Virus record (IMG/VR): IMGVR_UViG_3300032291_003205
Location: 1-64,000 of that record
Source of the DNA: a virus
Length of the DNA: 64,000 nucleotides
Direction: 5' to 3' (one strand)
Both the position numbers and the translations under genes were made by a program. Below, one piece after another: positions 1-58,644 of the stretch. Below the pieces are notes generated by a model. It was not told where the DNA came from, made no database searches, and saw only the letters and a list, made by a program, of their open reading frames with translations. The stretch's first letter is position 1. Each line of letters starts with the position of its first letter.

Positions 1-150
1 AAAGAATCAAACAATGAATACCAAGAACAAAAGCAATCTTATGAGAACAGTGTAGAAATGTTTCCTATTGATTTTGCGAATTATTTAGAAGTAGGATTTA
101 TAGAAGGTGCAAAATGGATGCGTAATAAAATACAAGGAGGTGAGCAATGA
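1..150 (+). CDS. 3' part of a small hypothetical cassette-array protein (ends ...GFIEGAKWMRNKIQGGEQ)
   Basis: Open frame 1 from the window edge to TGA at 148-150; ends in the GGAGGTGAGCAATGA junction. Confidence 0.7.
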   Translation, partial: KESNNEYQEQKQSYENSVEMFPIDFANYLEVGFIEGAKWMRNKIQGGEQ

Positions 151-245
151 GCCTTGACTTAAACAAACTTGAAAACAAACTTGATGAAGCATTAATTAAG
201 GAAACAACTGAAACACTAACCAAATTTTTAAACGATAAAAGAATG
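147..245 (+). repeat. ~100 bp dispersed repeat, copy 1 (copy 2 at 56941..57039)
   Basis: atgagccttgacttaaacaaacttg...tttttaaacgataaaagaatg versus atgagtcttgacttgaacaaacttg...tttttaaacgataaaagaatg. Confidence 0.9.
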
Positions 246-440
246 ATAAACAAACAACCAAAACCACCATTAGGACTAATGCCACATAGTGTATTTTTAT
301 TAAGAAGATTAGAAGAGATTTTTCAAGCGATTGAAAGATACTATGAGGCAAGTATGCAAATTCCAATTGAATGGATTCAAGAATACAATTTGTTAATAGA
401 AATGTATAAAAATAATTTAGGAAACTGTGACAAACAATAA
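147..440 (+). CDS. Hypothetical cassette protein; N-terminal 33 aa shared with 56941..57258
   Basis: ORF track; MSLDLNKL.NKLDEAL..ET.ETL.KFLNDKRM repeat. Confidence 0.75.
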   Translation: MSLDLNKLENKLDEALIKETTETLTKFLNDKRMINKQPKPPLGLMPHSVFLLRRLEEIFQAIERYYEASMQIPIEWIQEYNLLIEMYKNNLGNCDKQ

Positions 441-741
441 ACAACAGACGGCGGTGGAATGGTACATTGAAAAACTACTCGATTTAGATTATGAATATGC
501 AAAAGGACTAATAACTTTGGCAGTTTGGAGTGAAAGAAAAAAATCTTTAATTGAACAAGCCAAAGAAATGGAGAAGCAAATGACAATGAAACTTTATAAT
601 GATTATGAAAATTATTTAGAAGAAGCATTCAAGAACCAATGCGGTGGTCAAGCGGTGATAATGTCATTTGGAGCATTTTACGACCAAACCTACGGAGAAG
701 ACGATAGTATTAAAATTAACAATGGAGGACATCAGATCTAA
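427..741 (+). CDS. MTNNKQQTA-family hypothetical cassette protein
   Basis: GTG start; N-terminus shared with 55848 and 56147; QAKEMEK and QTYG motifs. Confidence 0.75.
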   Translation: MTNNKQQTAVEWYIEKLLDLDYEYAKGLITLAVWSERKKSLIEQAKEMEKQMTMKLYNDYENYLEEAFKNQCGGQAVIMSFGAFYDQTYGEDDSIKINNGGHQI

Positions 742-911
742 TGAAGCTAGGTGGTATTGTTGAATTGTTGATTAAGATAATTACATTTGGACAAGGCCAC
801 CGAATTGCTTTATTCATAGCCAAAAAAATGGGTTATGATGATTGTGGTTGTAAAGCAAGAAAAGACAAGCTAGACTTGTTTTGGGACAAAATATTAAATA
901 AATTAAAGTAA
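741..911 (+). CDS. Small protein with DCGC motif (56 aa, below the ORF-track cutoff)
   Basis: MKLGGIVELL...GYDDCGCKARKDKL...; coupled by TAATG overlaps on both sides. Confidence 0.7.
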   Translation: MKLGGIVELLIKIITFGQGHRIALFIAKKMGYDDCGCKARKDKLDLFWDKILNKLK

Positions 912-1417
912 TGTTATTAAATTCAAATCAAATCGCAAATCACGTTATTGAATCAGAATTCTCTAAACGTGCACAAATTGGCATTGACCTATCAGTGTGT
1001 AAAATTGAGCGTATTGATGTGGGTTCTGTTGTCTATAAAGACAAAACTCATATTGATGCGACAGGTTATCATGAGCTTCCAACTCAACTTATAGACAATA
1101 AGGATTGTTGGAGACTAGAAAAGGGTGTTTACTCGGTTACATTTAACGAGGGTATTAAAGTTCCAGCTGATGCTGCTGCTAAAATTACTCACCGCTCATC
1201 TTTGTATCGTACAGGAACTATTATCGAATCGCCTTGGTGGGATCCAGGATTCTATTGTGACCAAATGAACACAACAATGATTGTAACAAGTGTTATTATC
1301 ATTGAAAAAAATGCTCGTATTGGACAAATTGCATTCTGGCAAGTAGGTGAGGTAGGAGAGCAGTATGGTGGTGAAGGAAGTCAATGGCAAGGATTAAACA
1401 CTGCTTACAAACAATAA
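911..1417 (+). CDS. Trimeric dCTP deaminase / dUTPase family protein
   Basis: GIDLSV, THRSSLYRTG, WDPGF, RIGQIAFW and C-terminal YGG..SQWQG motifs. Confidence 0.8.
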   Translation: MLLNSNQIANHVIESEFSKRAQIGIDLSVCKIERIDVGSVVYKDKTHIDATGYHELPTQLIDNKDCWRLEKGVYSVTFNEGIKVPADAAAKITHRSSLYRTGTIIESPWWDPGFYCDQMNTTMIVTSVIIIEKNARIGQIAFWQVGEVGEQYGGEGSQWQGLNTAYKQ

Positions 1418-1479: not shown

Positions 1480-4146
1480 ATGTATCAAGCTGTATTTTAC
1501 GATAAAAACGAGAAACAATATTATTTACGTGATGATAGGTGGGATGGTTTTAAAACTGTTCAACATTGGCCTACCTATTATGTAGCTGATCCAGATGGTG
1601 AGTTTGTAACCTTAGAGGGTACACCTGTATCTCCTGTAAAAAAGATGGATGATTGGAAAAATCCTAAATACTTTGAAAAGGATGTAGATAAGGATACTCG
1701 ATTATTAGTTGATTATTATTACGAATCAGATGATACTCCCAAGTTCCACAACATTGTATTTTTAGATATTGAGTGTGAAATAGCAGGAGCATTAACTCCA
1801 GAAAACATTCGTAATCCTAAAGGTAAAATCACTTCTATTGCTCTTTATGATAATAATTCTAAAAAATATTATTGTTTAGTTTTAGATGAAAAACAAATTA
1901 TGAGTCCTAAATCTCATGATTTTAAAGAAGTTATCCCTTATATTAGTGAAAAGGATTTATTAAATGGATTTTTAGAGTTATGGATTAAGTTAGATCCTAC
2001 AATTTCATCTGGATGGAATAGTGCATTTTTTGATATGCCTTATTTGTATTTCCGTATGAAAAACATTTTAGGTGAAGAAACAGCATCTTACCTGTCTCCA
2101 ATAAATAAAGTTATATATAACGAATATAACAGTGATGACCCGCTAACAATTGGTGGTATTAATCACTTGGATTATATGTTGTTATTTAAAAAGTTTATTA
2201 CTAAACAAGAACCATCTTATCGTTTAAATGATATTGGTACTAAGTATGTTAAGTTAGGTAAGATTGATTATGAGGGTTCGCTTGATAAATTGTTTGTAGA
2301 CGATATAGATAAGTTTATTGATTATAACCTACGAGACGTAGAAATTATTGTTGAGTTAGAGAAAGCACAAAAATATATTGAGCTGACAGTTAATATTTGT
2401 CACTTATGTCATACCCCATATGATACAATTTATTATTCAACTGTTCTGAATGATGGAGCTATTTTAACTTACCTAAAACGTAAAGGAATAGTTTCACCTA
2501 ATAAACCAACTACTTACAATCCAGGATTAAGAGATATTAGTGTTAAAAAAGCTAAATTTGAATATGAAAAGGGCAATATTACAAAAGATGAATACGATGA
2601 AATAATATTATTAGCAGAATATGCTGGAGGTTATTTAAAAGATCCGGTACCTGGTTTATATGAGTGGGTTATTGATTTGGATTTTACTTCCTTGTATCCC
2701 TCAATTATTCGTTCACTTAATATGGGAATTGAAACATTAGTTGGTAGGGTTGTACATAGTGGTAAATTTGACAACCAGTGGTCATTAAAGGAATTAAAAC
2801 AAATGGACCCTGAAAGAGTTGTTGATATTGAAAAAATTAAAAAAGATAGAACAATTTCTATCTCTAAAATTAAAGTAGGTGACCTAGTAGAACTTATTGA
2901 AGAAAACGATTTATATATTTCGGCACCTGGGGTAATGTTTCGTAAAGACAAGTTAAGTGTTGTTTGTGAAATTTTATCAGACTGGTTTGCTAAACGTCAA
3001 GAATATAAACGTTTAATGAAAAAAGCATATAAAGTTGATAAAGACCCTGTAATGGGGGCTTTTTATGATAAACGTCAACATGCTTATAAAATTAAATTGA
3101 ATGATGTTTATGGTGTATTTGCTATTAATGGTTGGAGATACACAGATGGTAATAAGTTTATTAGTAAAGCTATTACTTTAACAGGACAACGTTTGTTACA
3201 AGAAAGTATTTCTAATATGAATGTTTATCTAAACAAGGAATTAGGTAATGAAATACCAGTAGATTATATTATTACAAGTGATACAGATTCACTATTCATT
3301 CAGTGTAAAGATCTATTAAAAGCAAGACATCCTGATATTGACTTTACTAATCATGAGGATGTAGTTAAAAAAATATTAGTAATTGCTACTGAGTTACAAG
3401 CAATGGCAAATAAGTTTATTGGTGAGTTTGCTGGAGAGGCTTTTAATTTAGGAGATGATGCCTTACACTATTTTGAATTGAAGCAAGAGGTTGTACTTGA
3501 TAGAGGTTATTTTGCTGGTAAGAGAAGATACGCCCAACACATTGTTAATAAAGAAGGTGTACCAACAGACGAACTAGATGTTAAAGGATTAGATTTGATG
3601 AAATCAAATTTCCCACCATTATTTAAAAAGTTTGGTGAACATCTTATTAATGAAATTATGTTTGGTAAACCCAAAACCGATATTGATAAACAAATATTAG
3701 ACTTTAGAAACGAAATAAGGACAATTAGTTGGAGGAAAATCCTAAAACCTACAGGATTAAAGATAATGAAAGAATATCTAGCATCTCCTCCATCAGCAGG
3801 TGAAATATTTTCTAAACTTAAATTAAAATGTCCTATTAATACTAAAGCAGCAATTTATACAAATGATATTTTACGATTTAAGAAACTAGATAAAAAATAC
3901 CCAACATTCCAGATTGGAGATAAAATTTATTTAGTATACCTAAAAGATAATCCATACAGAATAGATGCTATTGCTTTAAATGGTTATAATGATGCTCCTG
4001 AATTATTAGAGTTTGCTGAAAAATATATAGACAGAGATGGCTTATTTGATTCAGTTATGAAGAATAAATTAGAGTCATTATATTCGGATTTAGGATGGGG
4101 TGCTGTAGTACTTAATCCAAACATTAATAAATTTTTTAAATTTTAA
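1480..4146 (+). CDS. polB: Family B DNA polymerase with 3'-5' exonuclease domain
   Basis: Exo motifs DIECE and GWNSAFFD; polymerase motifs DFTSLYPSII, KIKLNDVYG, SDTDSLF, KRRYA. Confidence 0.97.
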   Translation: MYQAVFYDKNEKQYYLRDDRWDGFKTVQHWPTYYVADPDGEFVTLEGTPVSPVKKMDDWKNPKYFEKDVDKDTRLLVDYYYESDDTPKFHNIVFLDIECEIAGALTPENIRNPKGKITSIALYDNNSKKYYCLVLDEKQIMSPKSHDFKEVIPYISEKDLLNGFLELWIKLDPTISSGWNSAFFDMPYLYFRMKNILGEETASYLSPINKVIYNEYNSDDPLTIGGINHLDYMLLFKKFITKQEPSYRLNDIGTKYVKLGKIDYEGSLDKLFVDDIDKFIDYNLRDVEIIVELEKAQKYIELTVNICHLCHTPYDTIYYSTVLNDGAILTYLKRKGIVSPNKPTTYNPGLRDISVKKAKFEYEKGNITKDEYDEIILLAEYAGGYLKDPVPGLYEWVIDLDFTSLYPSIIRSLNMGIETLVGRVVHSGKFDNQWSLKELKQMDPERVVDIEKIKKDRTISISKIKVGDLVELIEENDLYISAPGVMFRKDKLSVVCEILSDWFAKRQEYKRLMKKAYKVDKDPVMGAFYDKRQHAYKIKLNDVYGVFAINGWRYTDGNKFISKAITLTGQRLLQESISNMNVYLNKELGNEIPVDYIITSDTDSLFIQCKDLLKARHPDIDFTNHEDVVKKILVIATELQAMANKFIGEFAGEAFNLGDDALHYFELKQEVVLDRGYFAGKRRYAQHIVNKEGVPTDELDVKGLDLMKSNFPPLFKKFGEHLINEIMFGKPKTDIDKQILDFRNEIRTISWRKILKPTGLKIMKEYLASPPSAGEIFSKLKLKCPINTKAAIYTNDILRFKKLDKKYPTFQIGDKIYLVYLKDNPYRIDAIALNGYNDAPELLEFAEKYIDRDGLFDSVMKNKLESLYSDLGWGAVVLNPNINKFFKF

Positions 4147-4907: not shown

Positions 4908-5123
4908 ATGAATATTCCACTAATTGCTATTAAAGACGAATTGTATCATGTTATTAGACAAATCCCAGAACATTCAGGAATTGATACAAACTTATTTAAA
5001 GGTTACACAAATACAACTCATGTATTTAGAAAAGATGGAATGTTTTGGTTTGTTCGCTTAATAGAGGAAGCTCAAATTGTTGAAGAAGAACAACCACTTC
5101 TTGAGGAAAATTTGGAATCCTAA
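4908..5123 (+). CDS. Hypothetical protein
   Basis: ORF track, tight packing. Confidence 0.7.
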   Translation: MNIPLIAIKDELYHVIRQIPEHSGIDTNLFKGYTNTTHVFRKDGMFWFVRLIEEAQIVEEEQPLLEENLES

Positions 5124-9255: not shown

Positions 9256-9933
9256 ACAATATTTGATGACTTTTTGATTTTATACCATATGTATAATCAA
9301 AAATAGTCATGATTGGAATTTATAAGATCACCTCACCCACAGGTAAAATATACATTGGGAAATCAATTCATGTTAATGAAAGAATCAATAGCTACAAATA
9401 TGCTAGTAGAAGACAATCTCAACATAAATTGAATAATTCTATTAAAAAATATGGTTTAGAAAATCACCTATTTGAAATAATAGAAGAGTGTATTGAAGAA
9501 TTACTTGATGAAAGAGAAATATATTGGATAAACTTTTATAATAGTGTAACAGAAGGACTTAATTTAAAATATGGAGGAGAAGGGGGTAAACATAGTCAAG
9601 AAGTAAAAGATAAAAAATCTAAATCTATGACTGGAAAAAAAGCCTCTTTAGAAACCAAACAAAAAATGAGTCAATCTAAAAAAGGACACTCAATGTATAA
9701 TGATGAATGGAAGGAAAAAATGAAACAAAAAACATGGGTAAGTGGAACAAGCTCCAAACCTATCCTTCAGTTTGATTTAGATGGGAATTTTATAAAAGAG
9801 TATGTATCTTGCGCTGAAGCAAAAAAGGCACTAAATACAACATCAGTTTCAATAAATAATGTTTTAACAGGTATAAGCAAAACAGCTCATGGTTACAAAT
9901 GGAAATATAAAGAATAGTTTTACAATATTTGAT
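9256..9933 (+). mobile_element. Endonuclease insertion bounded by the 12-bp direct repeat ACAATATTTGAT
   Basis: Repeat at 9256-9267 and 9922-9933; removing one copy plus the insert restores ATG ACA ATA TTT GAT TGG (MTIFDWLKE). Confidence 0.75.
9309..9917 (+). CDS. GIY-YIG homing endonuclease with NUMOD3/NUMOD1-like DNA-binding domains
   Basis: GIYKIT...IYIGKS, ETKQKMS, KPILQFDLDGNFIKEY...GYKWKY. Confidence 0.92.
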   Translation: MIGIYKITSPTGKIYIGKSIHVNERINSYKYASRRQSQHKLNNSIKKYGLENHLFEIIEECIEELLDEREIYWINFYNSVTEGLNLKYGGEGGKHSQEVKDKKSKSMTGKKASLETKQKMSQSKKGHSMYNDEWKEKMKQKTWVSGTSSKPILQFDLDGNFIKEYVSCAEAKKALNTTSVSINNVLTGISKTAHGYKWKYKE

Positions 9934-26850: not shown

Positions 26851-27420
26851 ATGATAAATATTACGTACATCTATCTAGTTGAAAACTGTTTCAACAATCT
26901 TAATAAAATTTATATTGGTAAAACTATAGATTTATCAAACAGAAAAAGTAAACATAAAAAAGTATATGGTAAAGAAATTAAGTTTACTATAATAGATGAA
27001 GTTAATTCCTTAGATAGAAAAGATTGGAGACCTATTGAAACAATGTGGATACAAAGTTTTATAGGTTGGGGTTTTGATGTTTTAAATACTCAAAAAGATG
27101 GAGGTAGCGGTCCATCCTTTAAAACCGAAGAACAGAAAAAACATTTAAGTAAAAAATTAAAAGAAAGAAAATATTTAGATAATTGGACATTAAAAAATAA
27201 AGAAAACCAACGTAAAGGTCCAAAACATTCTAAAGAACAAATTAAAAAATGGAGTAAACCAGTCCTTCAGTTTGATAAATATGGAAATTTTATTAAAGAA
27301 TTCCCATCAATATTATCAGCTGCTTCTTCTTTAAATAAAAGTAGACCCTTTATTTGGAATTGTTTAAAAGGAATAGTTAAAACTGCTGGTGGTTACATTT
27401 GGAAATACAAAAATAATTAA
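26851..27420 (+). CDS. GIY-YIG homing endonuclease with NUMOD1-like domain
   Basis: YIYLV...IYIGKT and KPVLQFDKYGNFIKEF...AGGYIWKY. Confidence 0.88.
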   Translation: MINITYIYLVENCFNNLNKIYIGKTIDLSNRKSKHKKVYGKEIKFTIIDEVNSLDRKDWRPIETMWIQSFIGWGFDVLNTQKDGGSGPSFKTEEQKKHLSKKLKERKYLDNWTLKNKENQRKGPKHSKEQIKKWSKPVLQFDKYGNFIKEFPSILSAASSLNKSRPFIWNCLKGIVKTAGGYIWKYKNN

Positions 27421-53685: not shown

Positions 53686-53686
53686 T

Positions 53687-53724
53687 TTGGAATCCCGAGA
53701 GATTATTCGTATATTCACGTCATG
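53687..53724 (+). promoter_or_regulatory. TTGG-N19-TATATT promoter, ATG at the predicted +1
   Basis: tttggaatcccgagagattattcgtatattcacgtcATG. Confidence 0.85.
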
Positions 53725-54351
53725 AAATTAGATAAAAATAGTAAATTCTACACACCACCAACGTTTAAACAACGTTTAGATAATATCAAGTATGGTATAT
53801 TGTTTTGGAAAGGACGTAGTAAAGGTATGATTTATACTCGTAGTATTGAGTTAGATGATCTACGTTACATATTCTTTCCTAAAGGTTTTCATGAAAAGTA
53901 TAGTTATTTAGGTTCTGTTCCTTATAATGAGGACGGACCATATTTTAAAGCAATGCTTCCTTTAGTATTAGCAATGGATTATGAGGCAAGACCTAAGTTA
54001 TGTCCAAAATGGTTCTTACGTTTCTTAGAAGTATTTGGTAACGATAGATCTATTGTTCGAGTTCGTAACCGGACTTTGCACGATCTACATAAGAAACTAA
54101 CTAAAGGTATGCGTTTTATTGATTATAAAACTAAATGGGAGGATTATGACTTACGTATTTCAATTAGTGCTCCTAAACATTTACAAGATCTAGCTGATGA
54201 TATTGAATTTGGATATTACAGTAGAGGTAAACAAGAAGAGTTAGTAGCTGAAATAAAAAAATTAGACCCTAATGCTAGTATTATTTGGGGGAGTGTTGAT
54301 AGATTAACAAAACAATTAGAAGAATTAGAAAACAAACAAGATAATAAATAA
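53722..54351 (+). CDS. Hypothetical protein
   Basis: ORF track. Confidence 0.7.
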   Translation: MKLDKNSKFYTPPTFKQRLDNIKYGILFWKGRSKGMIYTRSIELDDLRYIFFPKGFHEKYSYLGSVPYNEDGPYFKAMLPLVLAMDYEARPKLCPKWFLRFLEVFGNDRSIVRVRNRTLHDLHKKLTKGMRFIDYKTKWEDYDLRISISAPKHLQDLADDIEFGYYSRGKQEELVAEIKKLDPNASIIWGSVDRLTKQLEELENKQDNK

Positions 54352-54357
54352 GAAGTT

Positions 54358-55041
54358 ATGGAAAATCAAAATAGTGTATGTTTTGTAGCTCGTATTAACG
54401 AGATTAAACCAATTGAAGGAGCAGACAATATCGAACTAGCAGTAATTGGTGGTTGGAACTGTATTGTAAAAAAAGGACAATACAAAGTAGATGATTTAGT
54501 AGCTGTAGCAACTACTGATGCAGTCATTCCTCAACATTTGTCTGATGATATGAATGTGACTAATTACTTACGTAAGGGTGGTCGTGTTCGTACTGTTAAA
54601 TTAAGAGGTGTTTATTCCGAGTGTTTGATTATTCCTATTGAAAAAACAGGATTATTCAAATATGAGTTTACTGAAGGTAAAGATTTGATGGACATAATGT
54701 ACATCTACAAGTACGAACCACCAGCAGTTCAAATCCAATTATCTTCAGGTAAGATTAGGAAATGTAAGGAGAATGAAGCTTTTAAAGTGTATTATAAATT
54801 TCCTAATATCAAGAATGTAAACGGTATGTTTAATGAATTTGATGAAGTAGAGGTAACACGTAAAATACATGGCACATCAGCAAGATATGGTATTGTTAGA
54901 AAAGTAGAATTAACTTTATTAGATAAGGTTAAGTTGAAATTAAATAAGATGTTTGGTATTGGAGGTGATAGTTGGAAGTACTGCGATTATGAATTTTATA
55001 TTGGTAGCCATAATGTTGTAAAAGATATACAAGATTTGTAA
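54358..55041 (+). CDS. RNA ligase (DRB0094/Rnl2-like), N-terminal fragment
   Basis: PIEGADNIE, RVRTVKLRG.YSE, KYEPP, motif I KIHGTS; ends just after GSHNV. Confidence 0.85.
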   Translation: MENQNSVCFVARINEIKPIEGADNIELAVIGGWNCIVKKGQYKVDDLVAVATTDAVIPQHLSDDMNVTNYLRKGGRVRTVKLRGVYSECLIIPIEKTGLFKYEFTEGKDLMDIMYIYKYEPPAVQIQLSSGKIRKCKENEAFKVYYKFPNIKNVNGMFNEFDEVEVTRKIHGTSARYGIVRKVELTLLDKVKLKLNKMFGIGGDSWKYCDYEFYIGSHNVVKDIQDL

Positions 55042-55061
55042 CTTTTATATATTTATGTCCG

Positions 55062-55778
55062 ATGGATATTTCGAGCAATATAGGAATTTATAAAATATTA
55101 AATCCTAAAGGAAGAGTATATATTGGACAATCTACTAATTTAAAAAATAGAGAAAAACAATATAAAAACATAAAAGAATCTAAAGAACAAATAAAATTAA
55201 ATAGATCTTTTAAAAAATATGGGATTGATAATCACCTATTTGATATTGTAGAGTATTGTACTTTAGAACAGTTAGATGATAGAGAAATATATTGGGGTGA
55301 ATTTTATAATGTATTAAAAACAGGTTTAAATTGTAGATTAGGTAGAGGTAGAGGATTAGTAAGTGATGATTTGAGAGAAAGAATGAAAATATCTAATAAA
55401 AGGAAAAAAATTAAACCTGTTTTACAATATGATTTATATGGTAATTTTATTAAAAAATGGGAAGCAATTTCAGATGCTGAAAAAAGCTTAGGAGTTAATA
55501 ATAATACTAACATAAGTGCTTGTTGTTTAGGAAAACAAAAAACAGCATGGGGTTTTATTTGGAGATTTGAAAACGGGGATATAGAGAAAAAAATAGAGGG
55601 AGTAAAACACACACAAGTAGTTGTACAATATGATTTAGAAGGTAATTTTATTAAAGAATGGGATAATATAAAACAAATTAAAGAAACATTAGGTTTTTCT
55701 TATTCAACATTATATGAATGTGTAAATGGAAGATGGAAACAATGTAGTGGTTTTATTTGGAAGTATAAAGAAATTTAA
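55062..55778 (+). CDS. GIY-YIG homing endonuclease with two NUMOD1-like repeats
   Basis: GIYKI...VYIGQS; QYDL.GNFIK.W...GFIW twice. Confidence 0.92.
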   Translation: MDISSNIGIYKILNPKGRVYIGQSTNLKNREKQYKNIKESKEQIKLNRSFKKYGIDNHLFDIVEYCTLEQLDDREIYWGEFYNVLKTGLNCRLGRGRGLVSDDLRERMKISNKRKKIKPVLQYDLYGNFIKKWEAISDAEKSLGVNNNTNISACCLGKQKTAWGFIWRFENGDIEKKIEGVKHTQVVVQYDLEGNFIKEWDNIKQIKETLGFSYSTLYECVNGRWKQCSGFIWKYKEI

Positions 55779-55786
55779 AAATAAAT

Positions 55787-55850
55787 TTGGCTTCCTGAAG
55801 GATTGTTCGTATATTAACGACATAGAAAAAAGATAAAAATAAAAGTTATG
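55787..55850 (+). promoter_or_regulatory. TTGG-N19-TATATT promoter heading the cassette array
   Basis: tttggcttcctgaaggattgttcgtatattaacgacata. Confidence 0.85.
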
Positions 55851-56150
55851 ACAAACAATAAACAACAAACGGCAGTACAACTAATTATTGAAGCCTTGGA
55901 CATTGAATGCAAATCAAGAGGAATGAATGTGAATTGGGATATGTATTTAGAAATAGAGAAGAAACAGAGGATTAAAGACAAACTTGAATTGTCAGCATCT
56001 TTAGTTAAAAATAAAGAGCAACAACATGAAACTACTTGGATAGCAGCACTTGACTATGGAATTGAAAAACTGAAAGGTTTAAATGATTTAGAATCTAAAG
56101 ATGCTTTTGAACAATACTATGAACAAACCTACGGAGGAGGTGAGCAATGA
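55848..56150 (+). CDS. MTNNKQQTA-family cassette protein ending TYGGGEQ
   Basis: Shared termini. Confidence 0.8.
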   Translation: MTNNKQQTAVQLIIEALDIECKSRGMNVNWDMYLEIEKKQRIKDKLELSASLVKNKEQQHETTWIAALDYGIEKLKGLNDLESKDAFEQYYEQTYGGGEQ

Positions 56151-56368
56151 CAAACAATAAACAACAAACGGCAATGAAACAACACACATACGAAGAGTTA
56201 ATATCTATTTCAGATAAACTTTACAGAGAACAAAACCCAACAGGAACTATGTGTACACCAAATAGTGTATACATAACAGTAATTGAAAAGTGGTATCCTA
56301 AATATATAGAATCTAAAAGCGAATTAGATTTCTATGACTACTGTATTAAAACCTATGGAGGTGAGTAA
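56147..56368 (+). CDS. MTNNKQQTA-family cassette protein ending TYGGE
   Basis: Shared termini. Confidence 0.75.
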   Translation: MTNNKQQTAMKQHTYEELISISDKLYREQNPTGTMCTPNSVYITVIEKWYPKYIESKSELDFYDYCIKTYGGE

Positions 56369-56601
56369 TGACAAGTAAATATAAAATTGGTGACATCATA
56401 GTTACCCAAAGAGAATATTTACTCTTGTTTGATGAAGGTGAGGAGTATGAAATTGTTGATATTGAAAACAACTTGGGTGATTTAATGTATTATGTTTCTC
56501 ATAACGGGAAAAGGATAGCAAGTTGGGGTCTTAAAGAATTTGAATTGGATATTCAATTTATAAAAAAACCTACGGAGGAGATAACAAATGAAAGTAAATG
56601 A
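56368..56601 (+). CDS. Small SH3/KOW-like cassette protein
   Basis: YKIGDII...YEIVDI; the junction is read out of frame. Confidence 0.65.
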   Translation: MTSKYKIGDIIVTQREYLLLFDEGEEYEIVDIENNLGDLMYYVSHNGKRIASWGLKEFELDIQFIKKPTEEITNESK

Positions 56602-56941
56602 ATTAAGAATTGGAAATTGGTACGACCAATTTAGCAATCACCACAAAGCAACATGGGCTACTTTAAAACAATTAGATGAAGCACCCAAATCTCAACTTTG
56701 GTGCAAACCCATCCCACTCACAGAAGAATGGTTGTTAAAGTTTGGGTTTGAGCGTAGACAGATTAAAGATTTAATAAGTTACACCTTGCCAAAATTAGAG
56801 TTGTATCAATATTCATCTAATAACAATAAGATATTTTTTGAATATGCTGATGGGGAAATACAACTTAGATATGTCCACCAACTACAAAACCTATACTTTG
56901 CTTTGACTGGTGAAGAATTAACCTACGGAGGAGGTGAGTAA
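56588..56941 (+). CDS. Conserved phage protein (ELRIGN...PIPLTEEWLLKFGF...VHQLQNLYFALTGEEL) with appended TYGGGE
   Basis: Motif recognition. Confidence 0.8.
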   Translation: MKVNELRIGNWYDQFSNHHKATWATLKQLDEAPKSQLWCKPIPLTEEWLLKFGFERRQIKDLISYTLPKLELYQYSSNNNKIFFEYADGEIQLRYVHQLQNLYFALTGEELTYGGGE

Positions 56942-57258
56942 TGAGTCTTGACTTGAACAAACTTGCAAACAAACTTGATGAAGCGTTAAGCAATGAAACA
57001 AGCGAAACACTAAATAAATTTTTAAACGATAAAAGAATGGAAAACAACAAACAAACAACACCAGTTGTAGTAAAACAGCCCACAGGGGTAGCTATTAACA
57101 CCGAAAATGTAAGCCCTGAATTAATTAACCTTTTAACCCAAAACTTTGATCACTATGAAGATGATTATTTCGGTGTCATTGGGATGGATAACGGATCCGA
57201 AGAACATAAATCACTTATGGAATCAATGTCTAAAATGGGTATGGAATGTAAGAAATAA
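56941..57258 (+). CDS. Cassette protein sharing its N-terminal 33 aa with 147..440
   Basis: Repeat copy 2. Confidence 0.75.
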   Translation: MSLDLNKLANKLDEALSNETSETLNKFLNDKRMENNKQTTPVVVKQPTGVAINTENVSPELINLLTQNFDHYEDDYFGVIGMDNGSEEHKSLMESMSKMGMECKK

Positions 57259-57275
57259 ACAATAATAAACAAATT

Positions 57276-57452
57276 ATGATACATCAAGAATTAAATGAAT
57301 GGGATGAAAATATAAAAGCATTTGTAAAAGAAAAACAAATGACTAAGGAAGTACAAGAAGAATTTTTAACGGAATACGACTCTCATCTATTTAGAGGTGG
57401 AATTAACGATGTTGAATGGTTCTATAACGAATTATATGGAGGTAACAAATGA
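57276..57452 (+). CDS. Cassette protein (58 aa) ending LYGGNK
   Basis: Manual translation; in-frame NNNKQ remnant upstream. Confidence 0.7.
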   Translation: MIHQELNEWDENIKAFVKEKQMTKEVQEEFLTEYDSHLFRGGINDVEWFYNELYGGNK

Positions 57453-57964
57453 AAAAGTTATTTAATAAATTATTTAAAAGAAAAAAAGAGAAGACTCACT
57501 TCTACCCAACAGACGTTTGGTCTGAAATTGCTGAAAAATATCATATTAGAGAACAATTGTGGAATTTGTTTAAATCTTTACAAGATGTTTATGAGATTGG
57601 TTCCGGTATTGTAATCTATGGTGAAATTTATGGTCCTGGTATTCAAAAGAACTATGACTATGGTTTGAAAGAAATTGAATATGCTGGATTTGATATGACT
57701 ATTAATGGTGAATACACACCATGTAGTACTAGTTTTATGTATCATGATATGTTGGGTTTAAAATATGTACCTGTTTTGGCTGCTGATACTTGGTCTCAAG
57801 AATTACAAGAAAGATATATGTTTGATAAAATCGAAGGAACTAAAGTACCACATGAAGGTGTTGTAATTAAATCTATGGATGGTGACAGACGTAAAGTAGC
57901 TAAAATAATCAATCCAGAATATTTGATTTACGGTGAAAAAAATAACGTAGGAGATTCACACTAA
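57449..57964 (+). CDS. RNA ligase, C-terminal fragment
   Basis: FYPTDVW, IYGEIYGPGIQKNY (motif III), GFD (IIIa), EGVVI (IV), AKIINPEYL (V). Confidence 0.85.
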   Translation: MKKLFNKLFKRKKEKTHFYPTDVWSEIAEKYHIREQLWNLFKSLQDVYEIGSGIVIYGEIYGPGIQKNYDYGLKEIEYAGFDMTINGEYTPCSTSFMYHDMLGLKYVPVLAADTWSQELQERYMFDKIEGTKVPHEGVVIKSMDGDRRKVAKIINPEYLIYGEKNNVGDSH

Positions 57965-57976
57965 AAATAAAACAAA

Positions 57977-58345
57977 ATGATAACAGGAGAACAACCTAAA
58001 CTATTAGTTGCCATTGATGAAAATGGCAACATAGGTCTTGATGAAAATCAAGCTGAATTGATGGGCTTAATTGAAAAAGAATTTAATTGGAAATTAGTTC
58101 GTGAACGTGATGGTCTAACTAATCAATCTAAAGATATTAAATGGATTGAGTGGAATGAGGAAGGTAGATATAAAGCTGACCATAAAGAACCAGCAGTGGG
58201 ACGAGCATTACTTATGTCTCCATTTAATGATTTTTTTACTTGGATGACAACAGATATTACAGAAATCGTGGAAGAGCGAGAGGATTATATTAAATTCAAG
58301 ACACGAAATAGTAATTATGAATTATGGAAACTAAAAAACGATTAA
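57977..58345 (+). CDS. Hypothetical protein
   Basis: FTWMTT.IT...FKTRNS.Y. Confidence 0.7.
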   Translation: MITGEQPKLLVAIDENGNIGLDENQAELMGLIEKEFNWKLVRERDGLTNQSKDIKWIEWNEEGRYKADHKEPAVGRALLMSPFNDFFTWMTTDITEIVEEREDYIKFKTRNSNYELWKLKND

Positions 58346-58644
58346 GTAGAGAACAAAAATGGGAAAAGGCAGTTATTGATTTAATTAACGAAATGTTTAT
58401 CATGGCTGGTCATGAAGTTACTTTTGATGACATCAAAGATAGAAAAGATAACTGGTTTCAGCAATGGACTATGACTATGCAACAATACGAGGACTGGAAA
58501 TTATGGGGTAAAAAATACCTTATGAAAAATTTAAGACTTAGTGCTAAAAACGCTGAAAGAGAGATGATGTGGGTAGGATTACAGTGGGGTCTTAAATGTA
58601 GTGATTATGAAGAATATTGTAAAAAACGGGAAGATGAGAATTAA
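58324..58644 (+). CDS. Hypothetical protein
   Basis: ORF track. Confidence 0.7.
   Translation: METKKRLSREQKWEKAVIDLINEMFIMAGHEVTFDDIKDRKDNWFQQWTMTMQQYEDWKLWGKKYLMKNLRLSAKNAEREMMWVGLQWGLKCSDYEEYCKKREDEN

Follow-up and report, generated by a model that had tools for sequence, protein, structure and literature searches.

What becomes of an enzyme when its gene is broken in two by a mobile element, and whether the separated parts can still act together, is a question raised directly by a locus in an uncultured lake phage, IMG/VR record IMGVR_UViG_3300032291_003205. The stretch of DNA analyzed here (hereafter, the window) comprises the first 64 kb (64,000 nucleotides) of this 102-kb virus record, which is 62% complete and belongs to a phage set described as Bacteroidota-type. 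Within the window, an RNA ligase is encoded by two open reading frames (ORFs), 54358..55041 and 57449..57964, separated by 2.4 kb that hold an endonuclease gene, a promoter-like motif and six small ORFs. A first-pass annotation had delineated both frames as the intact halves of a split ligase and interpreted the break point as a landing site for cargo genes. The account that we consider likely as a whole is that a homing-endonuclease cassette fractured a ligase gene of the Rnl5 family, the two products of which would still operate as a two-chain enzyme.

The identity of the two frames is established by their profile matches. The N-terminal half (N-half) matches the OB-fold family PF21189 (1.4e-15, residues 10-94) and positions 5-228 of the phrog_968 ‘RNA ligase’ profile (E 8.8e-39), and the C-terminal half (C-half) matches PF09414 (positions 44-171, 2.7e-10) and positions 227-394 of phrog_968 (6.9e-18). 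Because the two phrog_968 ranges abut (228/227), the halves represent one gene cut in two rather than a chance match, and both ORFs lie at the coordinates first assigned to them. As annotated, the N-half contains motif I (KIHGTS) and stops soon after GSHNV, with its stop codon 8 residues past GSHN, and the C-half contains motifs III, IIIa, IV (reading E136-G-V-V-I-K) and V, ending 7 residues beyond the last profile position of the family. The catalytic residues K169 of the N-half and E59, E136 and K149/K152 of the C-half are invariant in both of the alignments compiled here (A1, A2).

Nick-sealing RNA ligases of the Rnl5 type, represented by NgrRnl of Naegleria gruberi and DraRnl of Deinococcus radiodurans, are defined by an OB domain followed by a nucleotidyltransferase domain, without a C-terminal domain (PMC4408790, PMC7261155), and in NgrRnl the OB-domain residues Arg4, Asp53 and Lys121 contact the ATP gamma-phosphate and metal (PMC7261155). 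The N-half of the window matches the N-terminal domain of the NgrRnl structure 5COT (1.2e-12), aligning D54 and K118 (KYEPP) with NgrRnl D53 and K121 (KWEPP), with Arg4 falling outside the alignment, and E59 and E136 of the C-half align with the motif III (GEIIG) and motif IV (REGLVFK) segments of NgrRnl. An AlphaFold2 model of the closest uninterrupted type of homologue, L002, built on an alignment of 35 sequences, matches NgrRnl over its whole length (Foldseek E 1e-19, TMt 0.68), and its match to T4 Rnl2 is far weaker. Profile, NgrRnl and Foldseek matches thus agree with the assignment to DRB0094-family ligases made in the first-pass annotation, and the window ligase is of Rnl5 type (DRB0094/TIGR02306/NgrRnl). 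It shares with NgrRnl and DraRnl the order of an N-terminal OB domain and a C-terminal nucleotidyltransferase domain, the lack of a C-terminal appendage and the residues of motifs I, III, IV and V, but differs from them in consisting of two polypeptides instead of one, in carrying approximately 35 extra residues between motifs I and III relative to NgrRnl, and in a motif I that reads KxHG, as in T4 Rnl2, in place of KxDG. With two ORFs 2.4 kb apart in place of the single polypeptide of the family, it is a fractured derivative of Rnl5 and not a standard member. The division of the nucleotidyltransferase domain, with motifs I and Ia on one chain and motifs III-V on the other, implies that any activity would need a composite active site, as had been proposed. 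No close relative of the ligase was found among cultured phage records, where only distant Rnl2 genes match, and no paper on a split Rnl5 ligase was found in the literature library searched.

The site of the break can be read from relatives in which the gene is whole. Among 78 viral loci retrieved with the N-half, approximately 73 encode an uninterrupted ligase of 370-400 amino acids (aa), in which N residues 1-222 are followed by exactly six codons and then, in the same frame, by C residues 18-171. The junction of these short-loop alleles, GSHNVEKGSDSQGFY(D/S)TDVW, is invariant at the protein level while its codons vary. Residues 214-226 of the L002 model, set between a strand and a helix, have a predicted local distance difference test (pLDDT) score below 50, placing the break in a flexible loop directly after motif Ia. 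The split form is itself widespread. A search restricted to proteins of 94-300 aa yielded approximately 40 C-half clusters of whole frames (170-172 aa, 53-84% identical to the C-half of the window). In all of them FY(P/S)TDVWS is preceded by a basic head, 15-17 residues long (MK..F..LFK.K.K(T)H); the length of this head varies only in frame, and each of its four types has an ATG. Querying with N-half residues 150-227, 52 N-half clusters were listed, again whole frames, which stop right after GSHNVVKDIQ(D/S)L.

A third allelic state also occurs. Nine clusters of uninterrupted ligases of 391-398 aa (P0124, P0143, P0168, P0172, P0175, P0176, P0178, P0179 and P0182) carry at the break site a long loop of 17-19 aa, formed by KDIQxL, 11-12 variable Ser/Gly/Lys-rich residues and ..K(E)K(T)H-FYPTDVWSE. 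Between N-half residue 150 and C-half residue 87, one of them, P0124, differs from the window only in the 6-7 residues at the stop, insert and ATG of the window. Long-loop and split alleles (bit scores of 116-167) are separated by a gap from short-loop alleles (80 at most), and among long-loop alleles the split state is about five times commoner than the uninterrupted one. Since uninterrupted long-loop relatives bear a variable loop at this position, the site tolerates insertion, and a tolerated break becomes more plausible. The tail of the N-half and most of the head of the C-half exist as an internal loop in these uninterrupted relatives, and are hence not unique to the split form; the long-loop alleles would be either vacant targets for the cassette or scars that healed after it was lost. 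In IMG/VR, degenerate DNA patterns for head and tail retrieved only the window relatives L001, L006 and G001, together with four distant intact ligases matched by chance.

Endonuclease genes often reside in introns or inteins, and fractured phage genes with split inteins are known (PMC2677866), so that the halves could conceivably be rejoined into a single-chain ligase by a group I or group II intron, by split inteins or by ribosomal bypass. We consider this very improbable. A covariance-model search of 54000-58500 on both strands (cmscan) produced no Rfam match at E<=1; the insert holds a promoter motif and seven ORFs; and in the related locus L006 the endonuclease gene has non-coding flanks of just 106 and 27 bases, which leaves too little room for an intron core. 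The N-half tail (5-7 residues) and the C-half head (15-17 residues) are too short for intein halves, lacking a C/S first residue and an HN + C/S/T end, and a profile search found no intein family match at either end of the halves. No joint across 55041/57449 appears among the contig joints listed from two DNA and two RNA runs, which provide short Logan contigs only, none of them spanning the insert. The first-pass annotation, which inferred a ligase of two polypeptides, is in this respect supported. The record does come from a metagenome and the region is mosaic, as would be expected of an assembly chimera of two phage variants, but the same order of N-half, endonuclease gene, optional cargo and C-half recurs in independent contigs from other samples (L001, L006, L086, L090 and G001), and contigs of a second run (X2) cover the boundaries between N-half and endonuclease gene and between cargo and C-half, leaving this possibility with a negligible probability.

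The whole split was found in six further loci, three viral and three metagenomic (L001, L006, L086, L087, L090 and G001, the last also designated L099), and its distribution among ligase alleles is that of a mobile insertion. In a tree of 59 ligases with the junction masked, the window and L001 nest with the intact L002-L005 and L008 (support 96), and L006 nests with the intact L069, L072 and L078 (support 100). Monophyly of the split alleles is rejected, at a cost of 109 log-likelihood units (approximately unbiased test, p-AU 0.003), and on a FastTree phylogeny of 195 C parts the split state requires at least 29 changes. Sliding-window identity shows L006 to be 90-100% like the intact L069 except at residues ~181-260, where it is 20-70% identical to L069 and 75-92% identical to the window. 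Between the window and L001, DNA identity is 56-81% in the 5′ part of the N-half, rises to 91-95% at 54719-55018 and to 99-100% at 55019-55850, across the endonuclease gene and promoter, is nil over the cargo, and returns to 95-100% from 57434 to ~58330 before decaying. Local identity peaks, mosaic flanks and scattered split alleles bear the signature of endonuclease-driven gene conversion in which flanking ligase sequence was converted as well. By these comparisons the split is a homing insertion polymorphism in phage populations, recent on this backbone. It is neither old nor fixed in this lineage: the C part of the intact P0001 is that of the window except for junction residues P20, T21, S25 and E26, and P0124 is identical over ~150 junction-proximal residues.

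The same junction has been occupied by two families of nuclease. L001 carries the same GIY-YIG gene as the window (99% identical), followed by an entirely different cargo, and L087, a short contig without the endonuclease region that contains L001-type cargo and the C-half only, adds no nuclease type. In L006 and L086 the endonuclease is of HNH/NUMOD type and no cargo is present; in G001 it is HNH, also with no cargo; and in L090 an HNH gene is accompanied by the promoter motif and three other cargo ORFs. A further contig, L089, has yet another cargo set upstream of the C-half, its endonuclease not being on the contig. The HNH nucleases carry a NUMOD tail related to that of the GIY-YIG protein, both proteins ending in GFIWKYKEI, and these shared NUMOD-type C-terminal modules fit one target served by two nuclease domains.

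Whether the split alleles still encode an enzyme was examined through the constraint acting on them. Of 138 columns near-invariant across 56 intact sequences, split alleles conserve 125, and 6 of the 13 departures are the broken loop itself. No variation is seen at E59, E136 or K152 among 70 C parts, half of which (35) are split, and the sampled split alleles, as divergent as 53% identity, all retain the full set of catalytic residues. The ratio of nonsynonymous to synonymous substitution rates (dN/dS) is 0.10-0.18 between the N-halves of the window and L001, 0.06-0.16 between L006 and L086 and 0.06-0.2 for split-allele pairs overall. The strongest test comes from the junction tract, defined as the last 47 N-half and first 30 C-half codons and present only in split and long-loop alleles: all nine informative pairs give 0.05-0.18, and the tail and head alone, compared between the window and L090, have a dN of 0.033 for a dS of 0.51. 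Taken together, both halves appear to be under selection, with dN/dS at 0.05-0.2 and the catalytic residues kept.

Structure prediction points in the same direction. Co-folding the two halves yields an interface score (ipSAE) of 0.90, against 0.00 for the best of three controls, reaching a mark attained by 58 of the 80 complexes with solved structures and by 2 of the 110 mismatched pairs. The co-fold runs share at least 91% of contacts, with a partner pLDDT of at least 83, and pair N residues 157-181, the strand of motif I, with C residues 51-62, 107-116, 135-144 and 149-154, the strands of motifs III, IV and V. The predicted complex speaks to the ability of the two halves to rebuild the fold and not to whether they bind. 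Combining the conservation of the halves with these models, we regard a working two-chain ligase as probable.

Several observations weigh against this conclusion. The leading alternative is that the insertion killed the ligase, the halves being recent, still-open remnants of an accessory gene that are common only because fresh intact alleles keep being converted. The C body of the window is identical to that of the intact P0001, indicating a young split on this backbone, so that intact ORFs here say little alone; the N-half is only ~60% identical to P0001, the two halves having different histories; and split alleles are scattered among intact ones. Because homing keeps re-seeding alleles, whole split alleles could be numerous without any of them being active. 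RNA ligases are accessory genes in phages, and under endonuclease drive their loss might be tolerable. The loop EKGSDSQG, invariant with synonymous variation in ~150 short-loop alleles, is destroyed in the split enzyme, and a conserved function may have been lost or altered with it. The dN/dS estimates have limits of their own: dS is saturated in deeper comparisons, the tail-plus-head set amounts to 22-24 codons, and the junction tract also occurs in uninterrupted long-loop alleles, so that its low dN/dS may have arisen partly while the gene was unsplit. Structures of single-chain ligases with this fold have been solved, and the success of the co-fold may reflect that likeness. RNA contigs on the C-half start at 57527, the very point from which the intact allele is identical; X15, one of these contigs, runs upstream into the intact-type GFYDSDVWKT before following the window from 57527 onward with 1 mismatch in 544 nucleotides (nt); these contigs are best read as coming from the intact allele, not the split one. 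On the same side stands the finding that no other RNA ligase gene was detected in the 102-kb record, 62% complete as it is.

The remaining evidence speaks against a dead ligase, which we judge unlikely. Head and tail are kept in frame, with the ATG and their character retained across four head types of 15-17 aa, and the tail, head and junction tract show dN/dS values of 0.05-0.18. The retention of catalytic residues in every sampled split allele, the roughly 5:1 excess of split over uninterrupted forms among long-loop alleles, the variable 17-19 aa loop that uninterrupted relatives tolerate at this position and the co-fold result all argue in favor of a two-chain enzyme that is still in use. 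A relative-rate test found about twice as many unique amino-acid changes in split alleles, and L006 against L069 gives a dN/dS of 0.26-0.39 (0.19 for the N backbone and 0.37 for the C backbone once the junction tract is removed). We rejected the reading of these two results as relaxed constraint, both being confounded by the imported junction tract and by mosaicism.

The features of the locus are compiled in Table 1. The GIY-YIG gene, the promoter and the six small ORFs that the first-pass annotation had placed between the halves were recovered by profile matches, motif scan and ORF prediction, respectively.

Table 1. Features of the fractured ligase locus, in window coordinates
Feature	Coordinates	Strand	Basis and remarks
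Promoter-like motif TTTGG-N15-TTCGTATATT before ORF 53722..54351 and N-half	53686..53715	+	Regex scan
RNA ligase N-half, 227 aa	54358..55041	+	OB domain, motif I K169 (KIHGTS), motif Ia GSHN, tail VKDIQDL then stop
N-side junction module (residues ~181-227, FGIGGDxWKxCxYEFxIGSHNV version)	54898..55038	+	Co-occurs with split or long-loop form on any backbone lineage
GIY-YIG homing endonuclease, free-standing, two NUMOD1 repeats, I-HmuI-like NUMOD tail	55062..55778	+	Profile matches
Promoter-like motif heading cargo array and C-half	55786..55815	+	One copy between halves; in tract 100% identical to L001
Cargo ORF 1, 100 aa	55848..56150	+	Starts MTNNKQQTA, ends YGGGEQ; no family match
Cargo ORF 2, 73 aa	56147..56368	+	Starts MTNNKQQTA, ends TYGGE
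Cargo ORF 3, 77 aa	56368..56601	+	Weak tudor-like PF24144 match (4.5e-4), under cut-off
Cargo ORF 4, 117 aa	56588..56941	+	phrog_10066 (function unknown), 2.3e-21
Cargo ORF 5, 105 aa	56941..57258	+	N-terminal 52 aa 65% identical to paralogue at window 147-299
Cargo ORF 6, 58 aa	57276..57452	+	Ends LYGGNK; TGA stop overlaps C-half ATG
RNA ligase C-half, 171 aa	57449..57964	+	Basic head MKKLFNKLFKRKKEKTH, FYPTDVW, motifs III E59, IIIa F81-D82, IV E136, V K149/K152

The product of the endonuclease gene has, as predicted from its sequence, the architecture of a GIY-YIG homing endonuclease of I-TevI/Seg type. It matches NUMOD1 (3.1e-14), the I-HmuI_NUMOD-like family (1.1e-09) and phrog_314 (6.3e-17), and reaches 22.3 bits against a cut-off of 22.6 for the Pfam GIY-YIG family (1.6e-4), with the GIY..YIG signature at residues 7-22. 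Two more GIY-YIG/NUMOD-like paralogues are encoded in the window at 9312-9911 and 26905-27414 (36% and 28% identity to the ligase-break endonuclease, respectively).

The promoter-like motif occurs in 13 copies in the record, 11 of them in the window (at 5111, 28875, 29612, 32117, 52800, 53686, 55786, 58981, 60846, 62807 and 63522) and two at genome positions 64126 and 66587, all on the + strand and 10-30 nt before ORF starts. It is also found in the related phages L001, L002, L004, L087, L089 and L090, following the endonuclease gene in the window, L001 and L090 and lying at the left end of L089, where the contig starts without an endonuclease gene. The copy upstream of the N-half is the probable start of the transcript that carries it. 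A scan for the sigma-70 consensus gave 22 sites against 22.1 expected by shuffling and is uninformative for a Bacteroidota-type phage, and no intrinsic terminator was detected.

The six cargo ORFs are joined by ATGA stop/start overlaps and by a repeated YGG(G)E/ATG junction, with GGAGG-bearing cassette junctions at window positions 56130-56150, 56354-56371, 56571-56591, 56924-56944 and 57435-57452. Most other genes of the phage have an A-rich leader only (..AAATAAAGGTTATG), with no strong GGAGG, as is expected for a Bacteroidota host, and what preserves the GGAGG at the junctions may be the YGG codons and recombination homology, not a role in ribosome binding. The first-pass annotation had proposed that the last cassette junction supplies both the Shine-Dalgarno sequence and the ATG of the C-half. 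The first part holds, in that for the window, L001 and L087 the last junction does provide the GGAGG preceding the C-half. The ATG, by contrast, is part of the conserved basic head (MKKLFNKLFK..KTH) present in all split alleles, including those without cargo or an upstream GGAGG; in L006, L086, L089 and L090 an A-rich leader alone precedes the same ATG.

The genes between endonuclease and C-half differ in each locus examined, including where flanking identity reaches 99-100%, and the block that distinguishes the window from L001 begins exactly at the first cargo ATG (55848) and ends 16 nt short of the ATG of the C-half. This difference between matching flanks implies that cargo turns over faster than the endonuclease and independently of it, likely by recombination at the promoter motif and at the conserved junctions (..ACCTACGGAGGAGGTGAG..ATGACAAACAATAAACAACAAAC..). 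At the DNA level, the region resembles phage records over 50 nt only, at the 3′ end of cargo ORF 4 (window 56871-56921), where it is 90% identical to hypothetical genes of the Cellulophaga phages phi10:1 and phi19:3. A second array at window 1-741, ending in ..KIQGGEQ, includes an ORF at 147..440, the first 52 aa of which are 65% identical to cargo ORF 5, and a GTG-started ORF at 427..741 that opens with MTNNKQQTAV; it lies upstream of ORFs 741..911 and 911..1417 and of a family-B-like DNA polymerase ORF at 1480..4146. The description of the break as a landing site for cargo therefore stands insofar as cargo differs at every locus, and fails insofar as a similar array elsewhere in the window makes this trait not peculiar to the break.

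These observations can be assembled into a mechanism. A mobile homing-endonuclease cassette has fractured the gene of an Rnl5 phage ligase in the loop after motif Ia, the cassette comprising, from left to right, the stop after ..VKDIQDL, the GIY-YIG/NUMOD gene, the promoter motif, the coupled small cargo genes and the ATG that opens the head of the C-half. The element would then have spread by endonuclease-triggered gene conversion, copying all that lies between the ligase homology arms, cargo included. The N-half would be expressed from the upstream transcript, and the C-half, together with the cargo, from the internal promoter. The N chain (OB domain, motif I lysine and motif Ia) and the C chain (motifs III-V) would rebuild the beta-sheet of the nucleotidyltransferase domain non-covalently, with the reassembled pair acting as a two-chain nick-sealing RNA ligase. 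Cargo turnover would be a separate, faster process of recombination between the promoter motif and the YGG/ATG(MxNNKQ) junctions.

An extension of this scheme, which we advance only tentatively, is that the fracture serves as an endonuclease-driven cargo slot, that long-loop ligases are healed scars, and that cycles of invasion and loss remodel an otherwise invariant loop of the catalytic domain. Because the promoter and the array lie between the homology arms, every homing event would on this reading have to copy them into the recipient. Were this the case, the cassette would constitute a natural gene drive spreading accessory genes through the phage population.

The window locus is another case of the known phenomenon of genes in pieces. 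The precedent put forward in the first-pass annotation is real: Crona et al. (2011; PMC3045599) describe Aeromonas phage Aeh1 nrdA-a/nrdA-b, split by mobE and active as two chains, and also discuss T4 gene 39/60 with mobA. As in Aeh1 nrdA-a/mobE/nrdA-b, the ligase consists of two collinear ORFs with no intron or intein, its active site is divided between two polypeptides, and short extra peptides stand at the new C- and N-termini, which in the window are oppositely charged (the acidic DIQDL and a very basic head). It differs from Aeh1 in its host gene, an Rnl5 ligase split in the nucleotidyltransferase fold between motifs Ia and III, and in a junction that holds GIY-YIG or HNH depending on the allele. 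In contrast to the NrdA tails of Aeh1, the ligase tail and head (except for the first 6-7 residues) also exist as an internal loop in uninterrupted relatives, and need not have come with the element; the opposite charge, moreover, is not kept in HNH-type ligase alleles, whose tail is KKIQSL. A further difference from Aeh1 is the promoter and variable cargo array inside the fracture.

A second point of comparison is provided by the fractured genes with split inteins and free-standing endonucleases reported by Dassa et al. (2009; PMC2677866), whose model has the invading endonuclease gene create an upstream stop and a downstream Met. As in that work, the ligase locus comes from an environmental phage, and an endonuclease gene of GIY-YIG type that includes NUMOD modules has broken the ligase gene in place, the element setting the upstream stop and the downstream Met. 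The locus differs in having no intein halves, its tails being too short, so that rejoining would have to be non-covalent. What makes the locus stand out are the two nuclease families at one junction, the uninterrupted long-loop state with identical flanks, and the promoter and exchangeable cargo within the homing unit.

The ligase locus adds a well-sampled natural case, with dozens of diverged alleles, to the few documented enzymes that have been cut by an endonuclease gene and are apparently still used, and it makes available three allelic states (short loop, long loop and split) whose flanks are identical locally. Between motifs Ia and III of the nucleotidyltransferase fold, it also marks a permissive split site that could serve split-ligase designs. 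With two nuclease families and a clear conversion tract, the locus lends itself to work on the homing cycle of uncultured Bacteroidota-type phages, and the location of promoter and cargo inside the homing unit raises the idea that accessory genes hitchhike on homing.

The surroundings of the ligase yielded a few additional observations. No tRNA genes were found in the window. At positions 642-1415 and 1450-2211 of L095 (genome ~99993-101562, outside the window) lie a PD-(D/E)XK nuclease-like ORF and then a P-loop kinase ORF; the latter could be an RNA end-healing partner of the ligase, but its matches to Zeta_toxin (1.6e-9) and AAA_33 (2.6e-6) do not show such a role, and it cannot be called a polynucleotide kinase. 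A conserved ORF of 122 aa (57977-58345; phrog_38150, function unknown) is always downstream of the C-half in the window, L001, L087 and L090, and lies within the high-identity tract shared with L001.

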